Assembly: GCA_027022365.1 (NCBI GenBank)
Contig: JALVYU010000011.1
Coordinates: forward strand, 16,168-80,167
Origin: Desulfurococcales archaeon
GTDB lineage: Archaea; Thermoproteota; Thermoprotei_A; Sulfolobales; Desulfurococcaceae
Length of the DNA: 64,000 nucleotides
Direction of reading: 5' to 3'
The number at the start of each line of letters is the position of its first letter. Position 1 is the first letter of the stretch. Position numbers and translations under genes: made by a program. The notes under the pieces were generated by a model, which saw nothing but the letters and a program-made list of their open reading frames with translations, ran no database searches and was not told the DNA's origin. Shown one piece after another: positions 10,142 through 58,218 of this stretch.

Positions 10142-11392
10142 TTACCATCCAAGAAACATTGTTGCTGATAACTCTAGCGCTTTTAGAGCAGGCAGGGTCT
10201 CGCCAGACAGGAATAGCAATAATGCATTTCCACCTGTCGAGACATGCACATGGTCATTGAGATGCTTTGGATCAACCATTGATGCCAAGTGCCCGCCACC
10301 TATCAGTACGAAGGCGTTGCTATTCACAGCGGCATTGAGTAGTTCCTTTGTGCCTTTCCTGAACTTCTCGTCCTCGATGACTCCTGCTGGTCCGCGCATA
10401 ACAATTACTTTTGCTTCCTTAATGAAGCCCTTGTACATATTGATAGTTGCTTCACCAATGTCCTTTATCTTACCCTTGATCCCGGCGACGCTTGCATTCT
10501 CTATGGTGCCATCATCTTTTACTATCTTGAAGTCTATGGGTGTCTCTATAGGTGCTCCCATTAGCAGTATGTGTCTTGCCCTAGGTATTAGCGATAGTAT
10601 TCCCTTCTCCTCCAGGAACCTCATGTTCTCCTTACCTATATTCACTCCCTTAGCGACGAGGAACAGCTGTGCTACGAGTCCTGTGGTTAGGATTCTATCG
10701 GCTGCCTTGTTTATTACCAGGTTCTCAATGACACGCAGTAAGTCTCTGACCTTGGTTCCTCCCAGTATAAATATCCTCGGGCTCTCCATTGTCTCGAACA
10801 CGCGTTTCAAAGCCTTGACTTCCTTCTCGAATACTGGCCCTGCAACGGATGGCAGTACAAGTGGGAACCCCACTATGCTTGGTTGGCTCCTATGCGCCGT
10901 GGCGAACGCATCGTTTACGTATGCCTCGAATAGCGGTGCTAGTCTCTTTACCATAATTGTCATGCTCTGTTTCTCGGGTGTCGCTTCGAGTATTTCTTCC
11001 GAAACCAGTCTCAGATTATCGAGTAGCAGTACTTCTCCCTGCTTAAGCTTCTTGATTTCCTCCCTCGCAGTGGGACCTATTACGTCTGGTACGAACTTGA
11101 CATCTAATCCTGTATACTTTGATAATAGCTCGGCGTGTTTCTCCAGCGTTACGAAGTCTTGTTCCCCCGGTCTCCCCTGGTGGGACGCAGCCACCACGGC
11201 TGCATTGTATTGCTCTACGAGCGTTCTGATTGTCTCGGCATGAACCCTTATCCTGCGGTCATCTAGTATCTTTCCAGTGTCCGGATCAATGGGCACGTTA
11301 ATGTCTATTCTTAGAAATATCTTCCTCCCTGTTATATCAAAATCCTTTAAGGTCGGGATCCTGGGTAATTTTAGGCCGTTCATCCGCATCAC
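10142..11392 (-). CDS. pgk: phosphoglycerate kinase
   Basis: 'RIDINVP', 'ASHQGRPG', 'AFATAHR' and 'STGGNALL' are PGK signatures. Confidence 0.9.
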   Translation of the reverse strand: MMRMNGLKLPRIPTLKDFDITGRKIFLRIDINVPIDPDTGKILDDRRIRVHAETIRTLVEQYNAAVVAASHQGRPGEQDFVTLEKHAELLSKYTGLDVKFVPDVIGPTAREEIKKLKQGEVLLLDNLRLVSEEILEATPEKQSMTIMVKRLAPLFEAYVNDAFATAHRSQPSIVGFPLVLPSVAGPVFEKEVKALKRVFETMESPRIFILGGTKVRDLLRVIENLVINKAADRILTTGLVAQLFLVAKGVNIGKENMRFLEEKGILSLIPRARHILLMGAPIETPIDFKIVKDDGTIENASVAGIKGKIKDIGEATINMYKGFIKEAKVIVMRGPAGVIEDEKFRKGTKELLNAAVNSNAFVLIGGGHLASMVDPKHLNDHVHVSTGGNALLLFLSGETLPALKALELSATMFLGW

Positions 11393-11669: not shown

Positions 11670-12917
11670 TTATGGCTCGTTCTCGAAGTGGATCGCTCTA
11701 GTTGGACATACACTGGTACAGAGTCCACAGCCGTAGCACTTATCTACATTTACGGTTGCTATACGCTTACCTTCCTCGGTAACGATAACTTTGGCCGCAC
11801 CATAATCACATACCTGTTCACAGAATCCGCACCCGATACATTTCTTGGCATCGACGACTGGTGGTTTGGCCCATGTTCTCCTAGGCTCTGGGCCGAGATA
11901 CTTCAGTGCTAGGCCTTTGACATCTAGGATGCTGTCATAACCATGTCTTCTGAGCCACTGGTCTATCTCCTTGGCTATTCTCTTGAAGATTCCTGGGCCC
12001 TCAATAAGGACGGCTGTACATATCTGGACGGCTGATGCGCCTGCCATGAAGTACTCTATAACATCTGTACCCTTTGTTATTCCGCCTACACCGATTATTG
12101 GTAGATTAGTGTTCTTAGCGGCTTCTGCAACCACAGCGAGAGCTAGGGGTTTTAGTGCTGGGCCGCTCATCCACCCGTATCCCTTGGGGCCTCCTACAAT
12201 GGGGAGCCCCGTCTCGATATCAATGTGTAGTGCTGGGCCAATGGTGTTTGTCGCGACTATTCCGTCAACACCTACTTTCTCGAGCTCTTTAACGAGCTCC
12301 GGTATGTTTGGTGTGAATGGGCTGAGCTTGGCTAAGATCGGTATGTCAACGGCTTCTCTTAGAGCTTTTGCAGCCTCTACTACGGGCCTGTAGTCTTTGC
12401 CTATGTAGTGTGTTGAGAACTCTATGGCTTCGGCGCCCGCTTTCTGTACCTTGGGCCCTAGGAGAGCTAGTTCTTCCGGCTTATAGCCTATACTGACTAT
12501 GAATGGCACACCCTTCTGCTTAGCGTACTCTCTGACTATCGGGTATTCTCTCTCAAGATAATGCTCTGCCGGGATATCGCTCCACAGCTCGGCATTGAGT
12601 AGTGCATATATGAATCTATAGTTGCCACTGTCCGCGTTAACAATCCTTATGTCGCCGGGACCATAGGTTTTCAGTATTTGAGCTCTTACCAGTCCCCTAT
12701 CTACAACACCCATGCTTGGACGCGGTACTATTGCTGGTTTAACGCTTATGGTCTTGGCGACAACCGCGCCAACACCGTTGTCGATCAGTATCTTCATGGT
12801 TTCCGCGTCTCTAGATATAGGACAAGCGGCATTCATTAATGGGTTCTTTAGCTTTAGACCTGCTATCTCGACTTCAAGGCTGGGCATACAATATACCCCC
12901 ATGAGAACGAGTTGCAC
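11670..12917 (-). CDS. dihydroorotate/dihydropyrimidine dehydrogenase-family TIM-barrel protein with a C-terminal 2x[4Fe-4S] ferredoxin domain (PreA-like architecture)
   Basis: 'LEVEIAGLKLKNPLMNAA' is a DHOD-like N-terminus. The C-terminus has 'CIGCGFCEQVC' and 'CYGCGLCTSVCP'. The canonical active-site Cys motif (N-SCP) is not evident. Confidence 0.7.
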   Translation of the reverse strand: MQLVLMGVYCMPSLEVEIAGLKLKNPLMNAACPISRDAETMKILIDNGVGAVVAKTISVKPAIVPRPSMGVVDRGLVRAQILKTYGPGDIRIVNADSGNYRFIYALLNAELWSDIPAEHYLEREYPIVREYAKQKGVPFIVSIGYKPEELALLGPKVQKAGAEAIEFSTHYIGKDYRPVVEAAKALREAVDIPILAKLSPFTPNIPELVKELEKVGVDGIVATNTIGPALHIDIETGLPIVGGPKGYGWMSGPALKPLALAVVAEAAKNTNLPIIGVGGITKGTDVIEYFMAGASAVQICTAVLIEGPGIFKRIAKEIDQWLRRHGYDSILDVKGLALKYLGPEPRRTWAKPPVVDAKKCIGCGFCEQVCDYGAAKVIVTEEGKRIATVNVDKCYGCGLCTSVCPTRAIHFENEP

Positions 12918-13136
12918 TATTAAATCATATTCGTGGTTTCTATATAAGCATCCCTATCAAATGACTACATGTGTGGTAGAAACCATTGGTTCATCTAATG
13001 TAAATGTTCAGAATCATGTTTTTAAACCGATTAGAAGAATATCCCCGGAAATAATATTGGATCCATGAGAATTTCTTATTAATGCACGAGAAAATGGTTT
13101 TCAAGATATGTGTTTTTTATAAAAAAGGTTCCTTAT

Positions 13137-51441: not shown

Positions 51442-52188
51442 TCAAATTATTCTAAGTACATAAAGAACTAGGATAGAAGCCTCAAAGAGTATGCTGGCAA
51501 GTAAAAGAACGACATACTTTTTTTCTGAACGATAGGGCAGAAGCGTCTTGAGAGGCAATTCGAGCCTATAGTAATTGTTTTCCCAGACAATCCGGCTGTA
51601 CTCTATCATGCTAGCGGTTGCTGGGCCGAGTCTCTTCCAGGCTTTCTCTCCTTTAAGAGCCCCGATCGCGAGGGACTCCATCATATCATGTAGTCCCGCA
51701 GGCATAGTTCTCCATAGGATTATGGGCGTGATTGCCTTGTCACCCAACCCTATTTTTATGAGGAAATTGGATAGCTGGACAGGACTAATTATCGAGCCGG
51801 CGAATAAGACTAGGAATGAGATATACGTGGTTCTGAAATAGATCATGCTAGCATCTATGGGGGATATGTGGGCCGCGAAACCGAGAAATCCGAATAGGTA
51901 CGCGGTTAAGCCATACCATATCCCTGGGATACTTGATAATGCCAGGCTTGCTCCTGCCCACCATCTGTTAAAGCCTAGGAGGCCTGTTATTGACAGTATT
52001 AGGACAGGTATGTAGGGCTCGTTATAAAATGGGATATAGATCAATGCTGAGAGGATAATTATTGTTATTTTCAGCACGCTCGGCGCTGCTCTTAATCCGG
52101 TCTCCCCGCTCATGAACAGGGACCTATAGATTAGCCCGACAAGTGCACCTATTATTTGCATTTTAACACGCCTCCTTCGATCACGCAT
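51442..52188 (-). CDS. ECF/CbiQ-like transporter transmembrane (T) component
   Basis: Polytopic membrane protein at the end of the S-component / double-ATPase operon. Called mainly on position. Confidence 0.5.
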   Translation of the reverse strand: MRDRRRRVKMQIIGALVGLIYRSLFMSGETGLRAAPSVLKITIIILSALIYIPFYNEPYIPVLILSITGLLGFNRWWAGASLALSSIPGIWYGLTAYLFGFLGFAAHISPIDASMIYFRTTYISFLVLFAGSIISPVQLSNFLIKIGLGDKAITPIILWRTMPAGLHDMMESLAIGALKGEKAWKRLGPATASMIEYSRIVWENNYYRLELPLKTLLPYRSEKKYVVLLLASILFEASILVLYVLRII

Positions 52189-53492
52189 GTTTTATCATAG
52201 ATGCTGTGTAGCCTCTTGTCATGTGATGCAATAACTACTGCTTTACCACTACTTGCAGTGGCGAGAATGGAGTCGATCACTTTCCTAACTATATAATTAT
52301 CAAGACCGCCGCTCGGCTCATCAAAGAGGAAAATATCATACCCTGCGAGAAAAGCTGACGCTAGGGCGGCTCTCCTTCTTTCCCCACTGCTTGTCTCCGC
52401 CAATGGTTTCTCAAGAATATGCTTTATACCGAATTCTTCCGCGGTAGCCGTGATTTTTTCCTCGCTGCAACCTCTTCCGCAGGCCAGTTTTAGTTCTTCT
52501 TTGATTGTGGCTCCTGAGAAGTACAGGAGCGGGTTTTCTGGAATAAGTATTGTCTTTCCTTTACGCATCACTACTCCTCTCGAAGGCTTGTATATTCCAG
52601 CGAGTATTTTCAAGAGAGTTGATTTACCGGCTCCGTTTGATCCCGTAATGCCTATGATCTCTCCTTTACCTACAGTAATTGATATGCCTTTTAGAACGGG
52701 TTTTTGTCCCGGATAACTGTACCAGATATTATCAGCAACTAATAAAACATCATTTCCTCTACTTCTCATGGTCTCTGATGCGAAGCCTTCCTTTGGAGGT
52801 GTGGGCACCTTATCTTCTCGGAAAACCCCTTCATATACTGGCCTTCCGTTCTCCAGCACTAAGAGTTTAGGTGAGAGACGAGCCCATAGTAATGGATCAT
52901 GATCAACTATGATAGCGGAGCCCCCGTTTTCGAGATGTTTCTTTACCAGGTTAACGAATTCTTTCTTGCCTTGCTCATCAATATATACTCCAGGCTCATC
53001 CATGAAGAGTACTTTTCCGCCCTTGTCGATATTCGAAGCCCAAAGGAGACGCTGGATCTGCCCAGCGCTTAGACCATAGGTTATATGGTCTCTGAGCCGT
53101 CCTAGACCATATATACTGAGTCTGGAGGGGTTACACTGGAGGCCTAGCACGGAGAATGATAGACAATACTCGGTCTCGACCGTGTGGCCCAGCACGCCGT
53201 ACCATGGATCCTGCGGGATATATCCGATTATCTGGAAAATCTTTTCGGGTTTTTCACGGTACGGATTTATCCCCGAGACAATAACTTCTCCCCTAAAATA
53301 CCCGTTTCTCGAGAGCTTGATGAGGCCCAGCAGGGATTTGAGAAGAGTGGATTTACCACTACCCGATCTCCCAGTTATAACTAGGGCTTCGCCATAATCA
53401 ACCTGCAGAAACACGTCTTTTATAGAAAATCCTCCCTTATACCCTGCCTCACTCACCTTGGCCTTGACCGCTGCTTGAGACATATCCTGCAC
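52152..53492 (-). CDS. ABC ATPase with two fused nucleotide-binding domains (ECF A/A'-like)
   Basis: Walker A 'GRSGSGKST' and 'GSNGAGKST'. Signatures 'LSAGQIQRL' and 'SSGERRR'. Walker B 'LFMDEP' and 'FLFDEP'. Confidence 0.85.
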   Translation of the reverse strand: MQDMSQAAVKAKVSEAGYKGGFSIKDVFLQVDYGEALVITGRSGSGKSTLLKSLLGLIKLSRNGYFRGEVIVSGINPYREKPEKIFQIIGYIPQDPWYGVLGHTVETEYCLSFSVLGLQCNPSRLSIYGLGRLRDHITYGLSAGQIQRLLWASNIDKGGKVLFMDEPGVYIDEQGKKEFVNLVKKHLENGGSAIIVDHDPLLWARLSPKLLVLENGRPVYEGVFREDKVPTPPKEGFASETMRSRGNDVLLVADNIWYSYPGQKPVLKGISITVGKGEIIGITGSNGAGKSTLLKILAGIYKPSRGVVMRKGKTILIPENPLLYFSGATIKEELKLACGRGCSEEKITATAEEFGIKHILEKPLAETSSGERRRAALASAFLAGYDIFLFDEPSGGLDNYIVRKVIDSILATASSGKAVVIASHDKRLHSIYDKTCVIEGGVLKCK

Positions 53493-54222
53493 GCCTCAGC
53501 CATGATGCCAGTGGTATGGCTATGGCAGCACCTATTACTGCTTGGCCTATATTGACTGGTACCTCAATAAACGCCGCGGCTGGCGGTCTCCCCGTTAATG
53601 GATTACTCACAAAGTACTCGTATAGCAGGTAGCCTGTAACCATTATTAGACCCGACAACAACACGGCAGCAGCCTCTCCTCCATATACGTTCTTTGCGAC
53701 ACTATATGCGATGAGAGCTCCTAGGACGAAGGCAATAATTATCCATACTGCAAGAGGGATCTCGATCAATGGGGATTCAAACTTAAAGCTGAGCCACTGC
53801 TCCGGCCCAACATATATTTTCCCCCTCCAGTAGAACACCGAGAAGGACAGTAACAATGCAGTATAACAAGCACCAGTCAATGCACCAATAGCTTTGCCAC
53901 GCAGCCCTTTAAACCTCCTAGCAAGATATCCGGCCACGTAGCCCTCAGTAAACTTAATAACTAGTGTTGCAGGAGCGAATATCCCATAACCCGTTGATAA
54001 GTCTGCAAGACTCGATCCTATGCCTCCCGCTATACCGGCAACCAATGGCCCGGCTGTAAGGGCTGCTAGGTAGATCATTGCCTCTCCTAGGTTGAAGTAT
54101 CCACCCGTAGCCGGCTGATATATCTGTAAAGCAACTGTGGCGACGTAAACAGCTACTGTATACGCTATAGTTAGTAGAAGCTCCTTACTGTGTGTCTTCA
54201 TTTCCTTCACCAATAAATACAT
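53449..54222 (-). CDS. ECF transporter S (substrate-capture) component-like membrane protein
   Basis: 'GGYFNLGEAMIYLAALTAGPLVAGIAGGIGSSLADL..GYGIFAPATLVIKF' matches the ECF_trnsprt-type pattern. Confidence 0.6.
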   Translation of the reverse strand: MYLLVKEMKTHSKELLLTIAYTVAVYVATVALQIYQPATGGYFNLGEAMIYLAALTAGPLVAGIAGGIGSSLADLSTGYGIFAPATLVIKFTEGYVAGYLARRFKGLRGKAIGALTGACYTALLLSFSVFYWRGKIYVGPEQWLSFKFESPLIEIPLAVWIIIAFVLGALIAYSVAKNVYGGEAAAVLLSGLIMVTGYLLYEYFVSNPLTGRPPAAAFIEVPVNIGQAVIGAAIAIPLASWLRRAGYVSSSGQGQGE

Positions 54223-54266
54223 TCTTGCCTTTCTGAATTAATATAAAGTTTTTTCTTTAAGAATCC

Positions 54267-55598
54267 CTAGGATAATCGATAGACAGTGTTCAAAAACTCC
54301 CTTCCCTTATCAGTTAACCTATATTTTCTAATACCCTGCTCCACATACGATTTGATAAGCCCCATTTTCTCCAGCTCTCTAAGATGCTGGTAGACGGCCT
54401 GAACAGATATCTTCACCCCGAGGAGCTTCCACAAGCCGTAACCATGTATGGGCTCGTTCTCCGCTATTTTCTCAAGGATAATTAACTTAGTAGACGGGGG
54501 GAATACGCTTATCTCGCTTCTCGCACGACTAGGCCTGCTATAGGCTTTCGGGCCTTTCAAGCCGTGGCCCGTCAATACAACGACTGTATCGCCCTCTAGT
54601 TGTTCGGAGAGCTTCAGGACTCCGGCAAGTGCTACGGCTGAGGATGGCTCAACAAATAACCCCTCGTTCCGTGCTAGAAGCTTAGCGGCTCTAAGTAATT
54701 CCTTCTTAGAGACCGCCAGTACATCGCTCCTACTCAGGATCTTCGATATTTTGTCTTTAACCGGAGAATCTGAGTACATGAGGCCCGGTGGAGGCTCTTC
54801 ACGACATCCATATGGTATGCCGAAGATTCTTGAATAAACGGGGTTTCCGCAGCTCTCGATCCCTATGAGTCTCGGCATAGTTGATATTATTCCTCGATCA
54901 TACATTTCCTTGTATCCATGATATACGCTATAGAGTGTTATGCCTGAACCTAGAGGTACTACAATGTTCTTGGGGACCTTCCCTAGTTGCAGGTATATTT
55001 CTATACCTATGGTCTTAAGGCCCTCGATAGATAATGGGTTGTGGGATGTTGAGCCCGGATAAGCTTTCATCTCGGGAATCTTCTTCGAGACAATATCCAG
55101 TAGTTCATCTATTGTTTTATCAAGAACCTTTACGTGTGCACCGTACGCTTTCATAAGGAGTATTTTCTCGGGATCTGTTTTCCTTGGAACCACGACGTAC
55201 GCTTTGATCCCAGCCCTAGCACTATAGGCCGCTACGCTTGAACCCATATTGCCATCGCTTGCTAGTAGAATTTTCTTTTCCCCAAGACTACTGGCATGAC
55301 TAACGATCAGAGCGGCCGCTCGATCCCTGAAACTACCTGTCGGGTTTCTCCCTTCATCCTTGAAGTAAACGGGTAGATTCTTGAAGAGCCTTGTAGACCT
55401 TATTAGTGGTGTCCATGCTTCGCCAAGACTTATCTTTGTCTCTATATCGGGTAGTATTGGTGAGAAGCTCCATATGTTGGATCCCTTGAACCTTGTCCAC
55501 TTCCATTTATGCCCAGGATGCATTATTTCTCTGCAAATAGGGCACTTCATAACGGGTGTTACTGTGCTGTAGCCGCATCGTGGACATATGAAGAACAA
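54267..55598 (-). CDS. threonine synthase-like (fold-type II PLP) protein with an N-terminal zinc ribbon and a C-terminal PadR-like wHTH. The Schiff-base Lys is replaced by Arg.
   Basis: 'CPRCGY..CPIC'. 'YFKDEGRNPTGSFRDRAAA' sits where ThrC has NPTGSFKDRG; Arg91 is codon AGG at 55326-55328. The C-terminus 'IHGYGLWKLL....VYQHLRELEKMGLIKS....RKYRLTDKGREFL' is PadR-like. Confidence 0.75.
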   Translation of the reverse strand: MFFICPRCGYSTVTPVMKCPICREIMHPGHKWKWTRFKGSNIWSFSPILPDIETKISLGEAWTPLIRSTRLFKNLPVYFKDEGRNPTGSFRDRAAALIVSHASSLGEKKILLASDGNMGSSVAAYSARAGIKAYVVVPRKTDPEKILLMKAYGAHVKVLDKTIDELLDIVSKKIPEMKAYPGSTSHNPLSIEGLKTIGIEIYLQLGKVPKNIVVPLGSGITLYSVYHGYKEMYDRGIISTMPRLIGIESCGNPVYSRIFGIPYGCREEPPPGLMYSDSPVKDKISKILSRSDVLAVSKKELLRAAKLLARNEGLFVEPSSAVALAGVLKLSEQLEGDTVVVLTGHGLKGPKAYSRPSRARSEISVFPPSTKLIILEKIAENEPIHGYGLWKLLGVKISVQAVYQHLRELEKMGLIKSYVEQGIRKYRLTDKGREFLNTVYRLS

Positions 55599-55677
55599 TA
55601 TTTTATCCCCGGGTGAGTGGCTCGTACATTCTATCCTAATATATAATTAAGGTATTAGCTTCCACCATATTAACCAG

Positions 55678-56421
55678 TTGCGATATACTCTTCAATGGTG
55701 TAACGTATTGGCCGAGCAACTATTGACGCCCGTAGATGTTATCATTGATTCTAGAGAGGACTCCAAACATCCTGAATTTAGGAAATCATTGATCTCTAGC
55801 GGTTTAAAGGTTGCAGTCAAGAAGCTAGAGGCGGGGGACTTCCTATTGCTCGCCTCCCCTGGGAAGAGACCGGTTCTCGTTGAGAGGAAAACAATTAATG
55901 ATCTGGGGAATAGTATTCGTGATAACCGTATATGGGAACAAGCCAAACTACTCGTTGAAGCCGCCAGGAAGGATGGCTACATACCAATGATTGTCATTGA
56001 GGGATGGCTCGGTGCCCTCGAAAGATATAGGGGATGGAAGATACAGAGTGTGCTAAGGATACTTGACACGCTTATGATAGATTTTGACATCAAGATATTG
56101 AATACACCAAACAAGTCAGCTACTATAGGATGGCTGGTATCAAAGGCTAAAAGTCTAGGCAAGACTAGCGAGAAGAGAGTTTATAGGCTACGCGTCGAGA
56201 AGAAACCTATGACTATCCAGGAGAGGATAATATATGTCGCTGAGGGTCTTGTTGGCCCTAAGCTGGCCCGGAAACTATTGGGAGTATTTGGTACATTGCG
56301 AAACATTGCGAATGCTAGTATCCAGGATCTTATGAAGGTTGAAGGGATAGGTGAAAAGAGAGCTAAGGAGATATATCTCGTCTTCAATACTAGATGGGGA
56401 GGAGAAGAAAGGGAAAGGTAG
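55678..56421 (+). CDS. xpf: XPF/ERCC4-family structure-specific endonuclease (crenarchaeal short form)
   Basis: ERCC4 motif 'GDFLL...VERKTINDL' and a C-terminal (HhH)2 'VEGIGEKRAKEI'. About 240 aa with no helicase domain. Confidence 0.8.
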   Translation: MRYTLQWCNVLAEQLLTPVDVIIDSREDSKHPEFRKSLISSGLKVAVKKLEAGDFLLLASPGKRPVLVERKTINDLGNSIRDNRIWEQAKLLVEAARKDGYIPMIVIEGWLGALERYRGWKIQSVLRILDTLMIDFDIKILNTPNKSATIGWLVSKAKSLGKTSEKRVYRLRVEKKPMTIQERIIYVAEGLVGPKLARKLLGVFGTLRNIANASIQDLMKVEGIGEKRAKEIYLVFNTRWGGEERER

Positions 56422-56427
56422 CCCGAA

Positions 56428-57453
56428 TTGTTGTCTACATGGACAGAAACATTCTACGTTATCCTAGCATCTATAATAAGCTTCATGCTAAGCCTCCACT
56501 TGGTCCGCTGGTGGATCCATAAGGCACGCGAGATAGGCCTGACTGGTAAAGACATGAATAAGCCCGAGGAGATACAGATCCCTGAGAGCGGCGGAATATG
56601 GGTCGGTGTCGCCGCTAGTTTCGGTCTCCTAGTCTTCATCGCGCTACAGATATACCTTTCCAAGTACAAGGAATACAATTTAGAGCTCATGGCACTAGCT
56701 CTCATGCTCTTCATGTCTAGTTTCCTCGGCTTCTTAGACGATATTCTTGGCTGGAAGAAGGGATTGAAGCCATGGAGCAAGATCATCTATATGGCCCCTC
56801 TTGCTCTCCCCATAGTAGTGATCAAGGCGGGCTACTCCATCATAACACTGCCTATCATAGGGCCGGTTAACCTAGGCCTCATATACCCCTTAGTACTGGT
56901 CCCCATCGGTATACTCGGCGCAGCCAATGCGTTCAACATGTTGGCAGGGTATAACGGACTGGAGGCTGGACAGGGCATACTATTGATGCTGTTCACGCTC
57001 ATCTACTCGTGGATCAAGGGTTTACACCCAAGCCTCGAAGCCTCAGCGATAATGTTGGCCGCAATACTGGGCTTCATGATCTATAACTGGTACCCGGCAA
57101 AAGTGTTTCCCGGCAATAGTTTTACGCATGGGCTGGGAGCATACTATGCAGCAATTGTGATTATGGGTAACTTCGAGAAATTCGGCATAATGCTCTTCAC
57201 TCTCTACTTCATAGAACTAGCATTATTCTTACGTGGACTCAAAGACGGTGTCTACAAGGAGAATTTCGGCAAAGTACAGCCGGATGGCACTATCCTGCCG
57301 CCATACGAGAGGGTTTATAGCCTAACTCATCTAGCGATAAAGGCCCTGATTAGGATGAGGGGGTATGCTCGGGAGAAGGACGTCACCCTATTCATACTTT
57401 CCTTGCAGGTAATAGTCGGTGTTCTCTCCCTAGTTCTTATAAGATATGTTTAG
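56428..57453 (+). CDS. glycosyltransferase family 4 UDP-HexNAc:dolichyl-phosphate HexNAc-1-phosphate transferase (AglH-like)
   Basis: 'FLGFLDDILG' and 'NAFNMLAGYNGLEAGQ' are MraY/WecA/GPT-family motifs. Confidence 0.8.
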   Translation: MLSTWTETFYVILASIISFMLSLHLVRWWIHKAREIGLTGKDMNKPEEIQIPESGGIWVGVAASFGLLVFIALQIYLSKYKEYNLELMALALMLFMSSFLGFLDDILGWKKGLKPWSKIIYMAPLALPIVVIKAGYSIITLPIIGPVNLGLIYPLVLVPIGILGAANAFNMLAGYNGLEAGQGILLMLFTLIYSWIKGLHPSLEASAIMLAAILGFMIYNWYPAKVFPGNSFTHGLGAYYAAIVIMGNFEKFGIMLFTLYFIELALFLRGLKDGVYKENFGKVQPDGTILPPYERVYSLTHLAIKALIRMRGYAREKDVTLFILSLQVIVGVLSLVLIRYV

Positions 57454-57456
57454 ATA

Positions 57457-58218
57457 CTAGATAACGTTTGGTGGAAGAGGATTAGACACGTATCCATTAT
57501 ATCCTGTCCTAACTAGCTCGGAAGCCCTTATGCCGCTTTGGATTAAAGGTGAGACATAGGGCCATGGCTGGCTACAACTATAGATCATCGCGGCAGACAT
57601 GCCAGCGACAATAAATCCGGGAATCAACCAATAGGTTCTCTCAACGAGCTCTTGTGAGCCAGGAATAGTAGGGCCCAAACCCTCTGATACAACGCCGATC
57701 TTAAGCCTGTCAAGCACCATGCCCGTTAAATAACCATTAGCTGTTGCATCGATGACTATTCTTGAGCCTATGATCTCCTTATCGCCGAGCATATGCTCGT
57801 TAAGTTCTCTTATTATAATGCCTGCGATGGTTATCCCTGTTCCGCCGGGTGAGAACAGGGGCTCTAGGTCAGTATTAACGATGATTTCGCCACCTAGGTC
57901 GAGTATTCTCGAGGAAAGCTTAACGATGTACTCGAGAGGCCTTATCCACTTCTTATCATTATCGCTGAAGATCTTTACTCCGGACTTGGTTAAGAAATCA
58001 ACTACACTGTCATCGATATAGGCTTTATCGCCTAATCCAGCGTAGTAAGTGTACTGCGAAAGCCCCGGTTCGGGCTCGATCACGATGACGTTATATCTGT
58101 TTTCGAGGAGTGAAGCAGCTGCCGCGAGACCTGTATATCCGGCCCCGATGATTATTACGTCATAGTTTCTCGACATCAACACGCTTTCTCCCTTAACCCG
58201 TAGGACTTGGCTCGGCAT
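57457..58218 (-). CDS. small FAD/NAD(P)-binding oxidoreductase
   Basis: Dinucleotide fold 'YDVIIIGAGYTGLAAAASL'. The real start is probably the Met before SRNYDV. Confidence 0.55.
   Translation of the reverse strand: MPSQVLRVKGESVLMSRNYDVIIIGAGYTGLAAAASLLENRYNVIVIEPEPGLSQYTYYAGLGDKAYIDDSVVDFLTKSGVKIFSDNDKKWIRPLEYIVKLSSRILDLGGEIIVNTDLEPLFSPGGTGITIAGIIIRELNEHMLGDKEIIGSRIVIDATANGYLTGMVLDRLKIGVVSEGLGPTIPGSQELVERTYWLIPGFIVAGMSAAMIYSCSQPWPYVSPLIQSGIRASELVRTGYNGYVSNPLPPNVI

Follow-up and report, generated by a model that had tools for sequence, protein, structure and literature searches.

The 64,000-nucleotide stretch of contig JALVYU010000011.1 analysed here (the window; Desulfurococcales archaeon, assembly GCA_027022365.1) carries a minus-strand open reading frame labelled "threonine synthase" in databases. 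It is followed by genes for an ECF transporter S component, a fused double ABC ATPase and a membrane protein of 248 residues (Table 1). The protein starts at a TTG codon and combines a zinc ribbon (CPRC at residues 5-8, CPIC at 19-22), a threonine synthase (TS) fold that includes the motifs NPTGSFRDRAAA, LASDGNMGSS and PLGSGIT, a flexible linker, and a C-terminal PadR-type winged helix-turn-helix (wHTH; IHGYGLWKLL...VYQHLRELEKMGLIKS...RKYRLTDKGREFL). The window has no second thrC and no pdxS, and no tRNA, Rfam family or tandem repeat was detected in it.

Table 1. Features of the TS-like/wHTH gene and the adjacent transporter genes, in window coordinates.
Feature	Coordinates	Strand	Residues or sequence
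TS-like/wHTH protein gene, predicted ligand-sensing transcription factor	54267..55598	-	443 aa
N-terminal Cys4 zinc ribbon	55509..55598	-	about 1-30 (C5, C8, C19, C22)
Fold-type II PLP (TS) domain, predicted to be catalytically disabled	54570..55433	-	56-343
AGG codon at the Schiff-base lysine position	55326..55328	-	Arg91
Flexible linker	54495..54533	-	356-368
PadR-type wHTH	54273..54491	-	370-442
Predicted operator, overlapping a TATA-like TTTATATT in front of the S-component gene	54242..54261	-	CTTAAAGAAAAAACTTTATA (core TAAAG-N6-CTTTA)
ECF transporter S component (PF07155, the PdxU/PdxU2-HmpT family), predicted regulated target	53449..54222	-	
Fused double ABC ATPase (ECF A-A' components)	52152..53492	-	
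Putative, highly divergent ECF T component	51442..52188	-	248 aa

Pfam identifies the PALP domain with an E-value of 1e-71 and the PadR domain (residues 375-436) with 30.7 bits against a gathering score of 27. AlphaFold2 models the full protein at pLDDT 91, falling below 50 in the linker. The best PDB hits are threonine synthases (1e-45), and Foldseek gives a TM score of 0.84 to the B. subtilis TS 6cgq. Translation of 55317-55343(-) yields PTGSFRDRA, and in HMMER alignments to solved threonine synthases Arg91 aligns with the Lys of NPTGSFKDRG, which by count along the alignment is Lys69 of the M. tuberculosis TS 2d1f. A sequence-only reading of this DNA had noted the Arg, proposed that an enzyme fold was repurposed as the sensor of a transcription factor, and asked that a sequencing error be excluded; both points hold. 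That reading also treated the zinc ribbon as part of the unusual fusion, which needs correction. The four positions are Cys in 100-103 of 109 homologues where the residue is present (three have His at position 19), but the ribbon is also found in bona fide, Lys-bearing ThrC encoded next to family members in Bathyarchaeia, and a 2017 paper (Kaur & Subramanian, cited in PMC5906684) describes it in TS.

The substitution of the Schiff-base lysine is family-wide. Arg occupies this position in 99 of 109 aligned homologues from Thermoproteota, Thermococcales, Bathyarchaeia and Asgard archaea (Lys in 6, Leu in 3, Tyr in 1), and in 111 of 121 in a first pass, while 14 of 14 bona fide TS have Lys. Although AAG to AGG is a single transition, a sequencing error or strain-specific mutation is thereby refuted. 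Also altered are residues that probably bind the phosphate of O-phosphohomoserine in TS such as that of T. thermophilus: the Arg of NPxRxEG, here Ser, is absent in 109 of 109; the Thr after G-N, here Met, is mostly Met, Ala or Leu and is retained in only 8 of 109; and GNAGN becomes GSGxT, with the Asn replaced by Ser in 107 of 109. By contrast, residues that contact PLP are retained (F/Y90, N117, T343, E317 and the Gly-rich loop), and 49 positions remain identical to real TS, a pattern of lost catalysis with purifying selection. The protein scores 126.2 bits with TIGR00260 (thrC) against a cut-off of 167.1, whereas a neighbouring Lys-bearing paralogue in Bathyarchaeia scores 372.9. In a rough NJ tree the family is monophyletic and the Lys variants form one nested clade.

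The C-terminal domain is predicted with confidence to be a winged helix (H-H-H-wing-H, pLDDT 95) that superposes on DNA-bound MarR/PadR-type regulators (TM scores of 0.75-0.87 to wHTH regulators, including DNA complexes). The fold alone does not separate PadR from MarR or ArsR, but the best hit of the family profile is the PadR structure 5dym (6.5e-8). Moreover, the PadR hot-spot residues that contact DNA, Tyr20, Tyr42 and Lys67 (PMC5728393), correspond to Y387 (109/109), Y403 (104/109) and K/R424 (105/109).

The S-component gene (PF07155, 2e-26) lies immediately downstream of the TS-like/wHTH gene in 52 of 75 related genome loci, and also in Odinarchaeum; it is divergent in Promethearchaeota and Hodarchaeota. 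Together with the ATPase gene, which has two ABC_tran domains and ECF_ATPase models among its NCBIfam hits, it forms an operon of overlapping genes on one strand, as in a group I ECF transporter, and this order is conserved in Desulfurococcales loci. The putative T component is assigned only from its conserved position after the ATPase gene, as no Pfam, NCBIfam or PDB match was found, even with a profile; the Promethearchaeota counterpart operon does have CbiQ. PF07155/COG4720 contains the vitamin B6 transporters PdxU and PdxU2/HmpT (PMC9997740), and among all solved structures the family profile hits only 4hzu_S (HmpT, which binds pyridoxamine; PMC4860826), with an E-value of 2e-16. Pocket residues differ from those of HmpT, however (His84 becomes an invariant Lys, Gln87 becomes Glu), so the substrate may not be a B6 vitamer.

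The spacer between the two genes (54223-54266), which the sequence-only reading had suggested as a binding region, carries a palindrome, TAWAG-N6-CTWTA, that is conserved across archaeal phyla. It is exact in 35 of 52 homologous spacers and within one mismatch in 47 of 52, against 0.1 and 1.3 in shuffled spacers, and the remaining 1.03 Mb holds 28 exact hits. The window copy is the only match in the 64 kb, where 0.1-0.16 would be expected by chance. The pattern was derived from the same loci on which it was first scored; only a metagenome scan and the scoring beside pdxS described below are independent. The scan, made with the Bathyarchaeia operator, placed the site directly after the TS-like/wHTH gene in 9 of 120 stretches and beside the S-component gene in a 10th, the other 110 being unrelated chance hits. 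Additional hits inside loci fall in coding sequence (gatE, EcfT-like) and were treated as chance. Half-site sequence is conserved rather than pairing, and mixed half-sites (TAAAG...CTATA) keep the consensus but would break RNA pairing, so an RNA-hairpin reading was rejected. B. subtilis PadR binds two half-sites separated by 6 bp, the same geometry as this predicted operator. No such site occurs in the other region that had been suggested, 55599-55677; nor was an operator-like palindrome seen upstream of the TS-like/wHTH gene in same-strand arrangements or in the divergent thrC regions inspected in Bathyarchaeia.

A further link to vitamin B6 comes from a Heimdall-type clade. In three independent contexts (loci L065, L204/L205 and L206) the gene is divergent from pdxS-pdxT, encoding PLP synthase, and the palindrome CAAGTT-NN-AACTTG lies beside the pdxS start, with a second, one-mismatch copy following in L065 and L204/L205; the background of 1.09 Mb contains 2 exact hits. 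Not every context agrees. In the one Thermococcales locus fetched (P. horikoshii) neither an S component nor pdxST is next to the gene, and a search for S-component homologues was uninformative for Thermococcales, as its top 120 were only from Bathyarchaeia.

Taken together, these observations suggest that the gene encodes a member of an old, pan-archaeal family of one-component transcription factors, in which a threonine synthase with its ancestral zinc ribbon was duplicated, lost catalysis and gained a PadR-type winged helix. It is inferred that the protein, as a dimer, binds a 16-bp palindrome (family core AGTT-NN-AACT / TAWAG-N6-CTWTA) overlapping the TATA/BRE region of the downstream ECF operon. 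The vestigial active site, which keeps the residues that hold the PLP ring and phosphate, is proposed to bind a B6 vitamer (PLP, or PMP/PNP) non-covalently, and the open-to-closed domain movement typical of TS would then change the presentation of the two wHTHs and hence operator occupancy. The net effect would be feedback control of vitamin B6 uptake here and of PLP synthesis in the Heimdall-type clade. That the protein is a DNA-binding regulator of the adjacent transporter is likely; that its signal is a B6 vitamer, and the model as a whole, are only somewhat more probable than not; DNA binding, ligand identity and repression as the sign are inferred without experiment. Absence of the Schiff-base Lys would make this an unusual way to hold PLP, and Leu, Tyr and Phe variants show that even the positive charge is dispensable.

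Other signals may be considered, though each appears unlikely. A regulator of this design could sense an amino acid or a threonine-pathway intermediate, with non-covalently held PLP forming a dead-end external aldimine as in GabR, frozen because the catalytic Lys is gone, and the ECF transporter importing that compound. The carboxylate-binding S-x-G-N loop is retained, the domain derives from TS, and 11 Bathyarchaeia loci have a bona fide thrC nearby, with hom, ACT or ilvD in those inspected. Yet this linkage was found only in Bathyarchaeia loci and could be a relic of the duplication, the thrC divergent regions inspected lack the operator, ECF S components mostly carry vitamins, and the pdxST linkage and PdxU-family S component point to B6. 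Alternatively, the thiamine pyrimidine moiety (HMP-P or HMP-PP), a close structural mimic of PMP/PLP, might be sensed to control HMP or thiamine salvage; a ligand without an aldehyde would explain why Lys is dispensable. HmpT was first assigned to HMP (PMC4860826), and in one locus the exact 24-bp operator precedes a PF07155-like gene followed by genuine thiL (TIGR01379, 261 bits). ThiL/HypE-like genes follow the S component in 22 Bathyarchaeia loci, although these AIRS-like genes score below the ThiL cut-off, and a ThiL homologue lies 2.6 kb upstream in locus L017. The operator-associated pdxS-pdxT linkage is hard to explain by thiamine, however, no thiC, thiD or thiE linkage was seen, and Archaea already have ThiR for thiamine genes (PMC10746257).

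It is also improbable that the protein does not bind DNA but acts as a cytoplasmic partner or processing factor of the transporter, with another factor binding the palindrome. Tight gene linkage alone cannot distinguish a regulator from a partner, but the recognition helix (QAVYQHL) is near-invariant, the PadR DNA-contact residues are kept, operator dialects track the lineages of the protein, and the gene is linked to pdxST where no transporter is present. Still less likely is a working threonine synthase with an incidental wHTH. The TS fold is intact and the NCBIfam equivalog model matches above its cut-off, but this reading is contradicted by the altered active site and low TIGR00260 score described above, by the co-occurrence of real ThrC paralogues, and by the conserved predicted operator and PadR DNA-contact residues.

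If the B6 model is correct, which remains possible rather than established, this would be the first recognised vitamin-B6-responsive transcription factor of Archaea, an ancient pseudoenzyme regulator present from Thermoproteota to Asgard archaea that senses a B6 vitamer in a TS active site without a Schiff base. Its regulon would identify the archaeal B6 importer and possibly a new PurM-superfamily B6 salvage kinase, in an area that a 2023 survey (PMC9997740) calls a poorly studied gap. It would also be a clean case of enzyme-to-sensor evolution, and would correct a systematic misannotation, as about 590 matching stretches in species-representative genomes carry the family-specific motifs. No published description of a TS-wHTH regulator was found in full-text searches, although the ECF S component HtsT may have been named for linkage to a "homologue of threonine synthase" (the name HtsTUV is listed as entry 31.1 in a table of ABC uptake families).

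Among known systems, the MocR-subfamily regulators of Bacteria, especially PdxR, similarly reuse a PLP-enzyme fold as the effector domain of a wHTH transcription factor, and PdxR regulons contain pdxST and the ECF S component pdxU (PMC5320631), matching the linkages found here. MocR factors, however, have an N-terminal GntR wHTH, a fold-type I aminotransferase domain and a Schiff-base Lys, and are reported absent from Archaea (PMC5320631), so that the resemblance is analogy and not homology of architecture. ThiR (thiamine) and RbkR (riboflavin) are likewise archaeal one-component regulators of vitamin genes and transporters (PMC10746257), probably enzyme-derived, but with different sensor folds (ThiN-like and riboflavin-kinase-like), DNA-binding domains and operators. 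In PadR-family regulators (B. subtilis PadR, LmrR, AphA, AspA), which share the wHTH profile, the Tyr/Tyr/Lys signature and a palindromic operator (here only predicted) with a 6-bp spacer, the wHTH is N-terminal and followed by a helical dimerisation or effector domain, whereas here it is C-terminal to a 350-aa enzyme-like sensor. Canonical archaeal ThrC has the same fold and zinc ribbon, 30-36% identity and the position of sister group in the tree, but possesses the Schiff-base Lys, the Thr and Arg for the substrate phosphate, and GNAGN, and has no wHTH. The family and its architecture are already catalogued as NCBIfam NF004170 (PRK05638) "threonine synthase", of which the protein is a full-length member (435.7 bits against a cut-off of 421; residues 5-438 match profile positions 4-440 of 442), but that name assigns an enzymatic function that the conserved sequence features contradict.

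The minus-strand ORF (TTG start, 443 aa) is real and contains every motif that the sequence-only reading had quoted. Translation of the segment spanning Arg91 gives PTGSFRDRA, which places that residue on an AGG codon. The reading frame stays open for 12 codons upstream of the TTG with no ATG, GTG or TTG, and a tblastn alignment to ThrC extends into this segment, but the 443-aa length matches the three closest database homologues and the TTG was retained as the start. Pfam finds a PLP-dependent enzyme domain at residues 56-343 (E 1e-71) and a PadR domain at residues 375-436 (30.7 bits, gathering score 27). The best solved relatives are threonine synthases (2d1f, 1e-45), and in those alignments Arg91 sits under the Lys of NPTGSFKDRG. 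AlphaFold2 with a 109-sequence alignment gives a model of mean pLDDT 91, with a TS-like core, a disordered linker at 356-368 and a helix-helix-helix-wing-helix domain at 370-442; the core superposes on B. subtilis TS with TM 0.84. The upstream neighbors (55678-58218) include XPF/Hef-type and GT4-family genes that stay linked to the TF gene in several Desulfurococcales, apparently by plain synteny, while the Thi4-family gene does so only in the closest relative.

Coordinates of the features discussed in the text
Sequence	Position	Strand	Feature
window	54267-55598	-	ORF of the TS-like/wHTH protein (TF gene)
window	55317-55343	-	segment translated as PTGSFRDRA
window	55326-55328	-	AGG codon of Arg91
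window	55599-55634		open reading frame upstream of the TTG start (TTG at 55598)
window	54242-54261		palindrome, predicted operator
window	53449-54222	-	ECF S component (PF07155, 2e-26)
window	52152-53492	-	fused double ABC ATPase
window	51442-52188	-	248-aa membrane protein at the position of a T component
window	55678-56421	+	XPF/Hef-type ERCC4-HhH nuclease
window	56428-57453	+	GT4-family glycosyltransferase
window	57457-58218	-	Thi4-family protein
L057 (Bathyarchaeia locus)	10198-11223		PurM/AIR-synthase-superfamily gene
L197 (metagenomic contig)	12051-13027		region with an exact 24-bp operator directly in front of a membrane-protein gene

The sequence-only reading had asked that a sequencing error be excluded at Arg91, and the substitution is neither an error nor confined to this genome. 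NCBIfam NF004170 (PRK05638, "threonine synthase", equivalog) matches the protein end to end above its cut-off, and the whole architecture is therefore a catalogued family, although a curated model with this name probably propagates a wrong enzyme name to many archaeal genomes. The 120 best homologues come from Desulfurococcales, Thermococcales, Bathyarchaeia, Odin-, Prometheo- and Hodarchaeota, and the closest match is a Desulfurococcales MAG (locus L001) with 92% identity and the same gene order. At the Schiff-base position the 109-sequence alignment has Arg in 99, Lys in 6, Leu in 3 and Tyr in 1. In a rough NJ tree the family is monophyletic and sister to Zn-ribbon ThrC, and the Lys and Leu variants each form one nested clade.

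The family was compared with 11 Lys-bearing ThrC neighbors and three solved TS, with roles of the TS residues assigned provisionally after the T. thermophilus TS structures. The Arg of NPxRxEG is absent in 109 of 109 members, the Thr following G-N is mostly Met/Ala/Leu (Thr is kept in 8), the Thr preceding G-N is Asp/Asn in 107, and the GNAGN loop becomes GSGxT. In contrast, the ring-stacking Phe/Tyr is kept in 98, the Asn of the S-x-G-N loop in 108 and the Thr of the T-G-x-G-L-K motif in 97, and the EP(S/A)S(A/S) motif and the Gly-rich phosphate loop are also kept. Forty-nine positions are conserved and identical in both groups, and only four are conserved but different. Against TIGR00260 thrC (cut-off 167) the query scores 126 bits, compared to 373 for the neighboring Bathyarchaeia paralogue. 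These features are read here as those of a pseudoenzyme under selection, in which the cofactor pocket is preserved while catalysis and O-phosphohomoserine binding are not. The four Cys of the N-terminal Zn ribbon are nearly invariant, but the sequence-only reading, in which the ribbon was one of the fused parts, needs correction on this point: bona fide ThrC neighbors have the ribbon too, it is described as a TS feature in a 2017 paper cited in PMC5906684, and it is not part of the novelty.

A profile of the C-terminal domain hits PadR-family structures first (5dym, 6.5e-8). The isolated domain models at pLDDT 95 and superposes on MarR/PadR/ArsR-type regulators, including DNA complexes, with TM 0.75-0.87. 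B. subtilis PadR uses Tyr20, Tyr42 and Lys67 as its conserved DNA-binding hot spot and recognizes two half-sites separated by 6 bp (PMC5728393); the equivalent residues here are Y387 (109/109), Y403 (104/109) and K/R424 (105/109). The recognition helix QAVYQHLxEL is almost invariant across phyla.

Directly downstream of the TF gene, on the same strand, lie three overlapping genes, for an ECF S component, a fused double ABC ATPase and a membrane protein at the position of a T component. The last has no Pfam, NCBIfam or PDB match, even as a 13-sequence profile, but keeps an invariant W-R-x-x-P motif and may be a very divergent EcfT. Among the 79 of 80 genome loci in which the TF gene could be called, a homologue of this S component is the next gene on the same strand in 52 of the 75 that have a called downstream gene, and the same holds in Odinarchaeum. 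In Promethearchaeota and Hodarchaeota the ECF operon is divergent from the TF gene, and in Pyrococcus horikoshii neither an S component nor pdx genes are adjacent.

The spacers between the TF and S-component genes carry a conserved palindrome, CTTAAAG-N6-CTTTAAG in Desulfurococcales and ATAGTATAGTT-NN-AACTATACTAT in Bathyarchaeia. The shared pattern TAWAG-N6-CTWTA is exact in 35 of 52 spacers (mean length 72 bp) and within one mismatch in 47 of 52, whereas shuffled spacers give 0.1 and 1.3; the other 1.03 Mb of the loci holds 28 exact hits. The window copy, CTTAAAGAAAAAACTTTATA, is the only match in 64 kb, with a chance expectation of 0.1-0.16, and it overlaps a TATA-like TTTATATT about 20 nt before the S-component ATG. 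Mixed half-sites such as TAAAG...CTATA keep the consensus but would break RNA pairing, which argues for protein recognition rather than a hairpin. Lys-variant members have the same S component and operator, and no such site lies upstream of the TF gene itself. As an independent check, metagenomes were scanned for AGTATAG-N6-CTATACT; ten of 120 stretches carried this system, nine of them with the site 30-60 bp after the stop of the TF gene. Several promoters (loci L008, L009, L011, L049, L056, L054 and L059, and the intergenic regions of L065, L204 and L205) carry two operator copies 17-20 bp apart, suggesting cooperative binding of two dimers in some lineages. A Desulfurococcales member with Tyr at the Schiff-base position (L020) has an S-component upstream region that shares AGTATAAACTTGAATA with the operator of Odinarchaeum (L083) rather than the Desulfurococcales dialect, a hint of horizontal transfer of the TF-target pair.

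Several features link the system to vitamin B6. PF07155/COG4720 is the family of the B6 transporters PdxU and PdxU2/HmpT (PMC9997740), and among all solved structures the archaeal S-component profile matches only 4hzu_S (E 2e-16), a protein that extracts pyridoxamine (PMC4860826). Glu41 of HmpT is conserved, but the substrate-contacting His84 of HmpT/PdxU2 is replaced by an invariant Lys (residue 90 in the window S component) and Gln87 by Glu; a Lys in the pocket could in principle form an aldimine with pyridoxal. The archaeal proteins are also about 80 residues longer than bacterial S components. The strongest evidence is the Leu-variant clade. In a Heimdallarchaeota MAG (L065) and two metagenomic relatives (L204/205, L206), the TF gene is divergent from pdxS (SOR_SNZ) and pdxT (SNO), the PLP synthase, and the shared intergenic region carries ACAAGTTATAACTTGT beside the pdxS start; in L065 and L204/L205 a second copy with one mismatch follows. 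The same CAAGTT-NN-AACTTG element lies beside the S-component start in Prometheo-, Hod- and Odinarchaeota, where it occurs once or twice per locus and only there, against a background of 2 exact hits in 1.09 Mb. All operator dialects share the core AGTT-NN-AACT. Bacterial PdxR regulons consist of pdxST, pdxK and pdxU, and MocR factors are reported absent from Archaea (PMC5320631), while the 2023 survey of PLP metabolism (PMC9997740) lists no archaeal regulator and calls B6 transport poorly studied.

It is inferred from these observations that the protein dimerizes, as TS and PadR proteins do, that it binds the palindrome across the S-component promoter, and that occupancy changes when a B6 vitamer fills the vestigial active site, giving feedback control of uptake or synthesis. 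Repression by the liganded form is the more likely sign, because the window site overlaps the TATA-like element, though operator positions at pdxS do not settle the question.

Other gene contexts do not fit the B6 proposal and keep two alternatives alive, an amino-acid signal and a thiamine-pyrimidine (HMP-P) signal, the latter being chemically plausible for a Lys-less PLP pocket. In eleven Bathyarchaeia loci (L032, L039, L040, L041, L044, L047, L050, L053, L063, L069 and L070) a Lys-bearing Zn-ribbon ThrC gene lies close to the TF gene, directly divergent from it in the loci whose gene maps were inspected; the one representative scored gave 373 bits against TIGR00260. In some of these (for example L044, L053 and L070) hom and an ACT-domain gene, and in L044 and L053 also ilvD, lie beside it. 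This may be either a relic of the founding duplication or a sign of a threonine-pathway connection. In 22 Bathyarchaeia loci, L057 among them, a PurM/AIR-synthase-superfamily gene follows the S-component gene within 6-50 bp. It is HypE-like at 135 bits and ThiL-like at 104 bits, below all curated cut-offs, and could be an unrecognized kinase acting on the imported compound, for example a non-orthologous B6 or HMP salvage kinase. Finally, the metagenomic contig L197 has an exact 24-bp Bathyarchaeia-type operator (ATAGTATAGTTGTAACTATACTAT) in front of a membrane-protein gene whose C-terminal part matches PF07155 only if an in-frame stop is read through. This gene is followed by bona fide thiL and an AmmeMemoRadiSam radical-SAM gene, with no TF gene within 900 bp, a thiamine link that the B6 model does not explain.

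The proposal of the sequence-only reading, an enzyme fold repurposed as the sensor domain of a transcription factor, is supported and extended. The family is catalogued but named as an enzyme, and no paper describing it as a regulator was found in the literature searched. Enzyme-derived one-component regulators are themselves already known, and the protein is analogous to PdxR/MocR and, it would seem, also to ThiR and RbkR.
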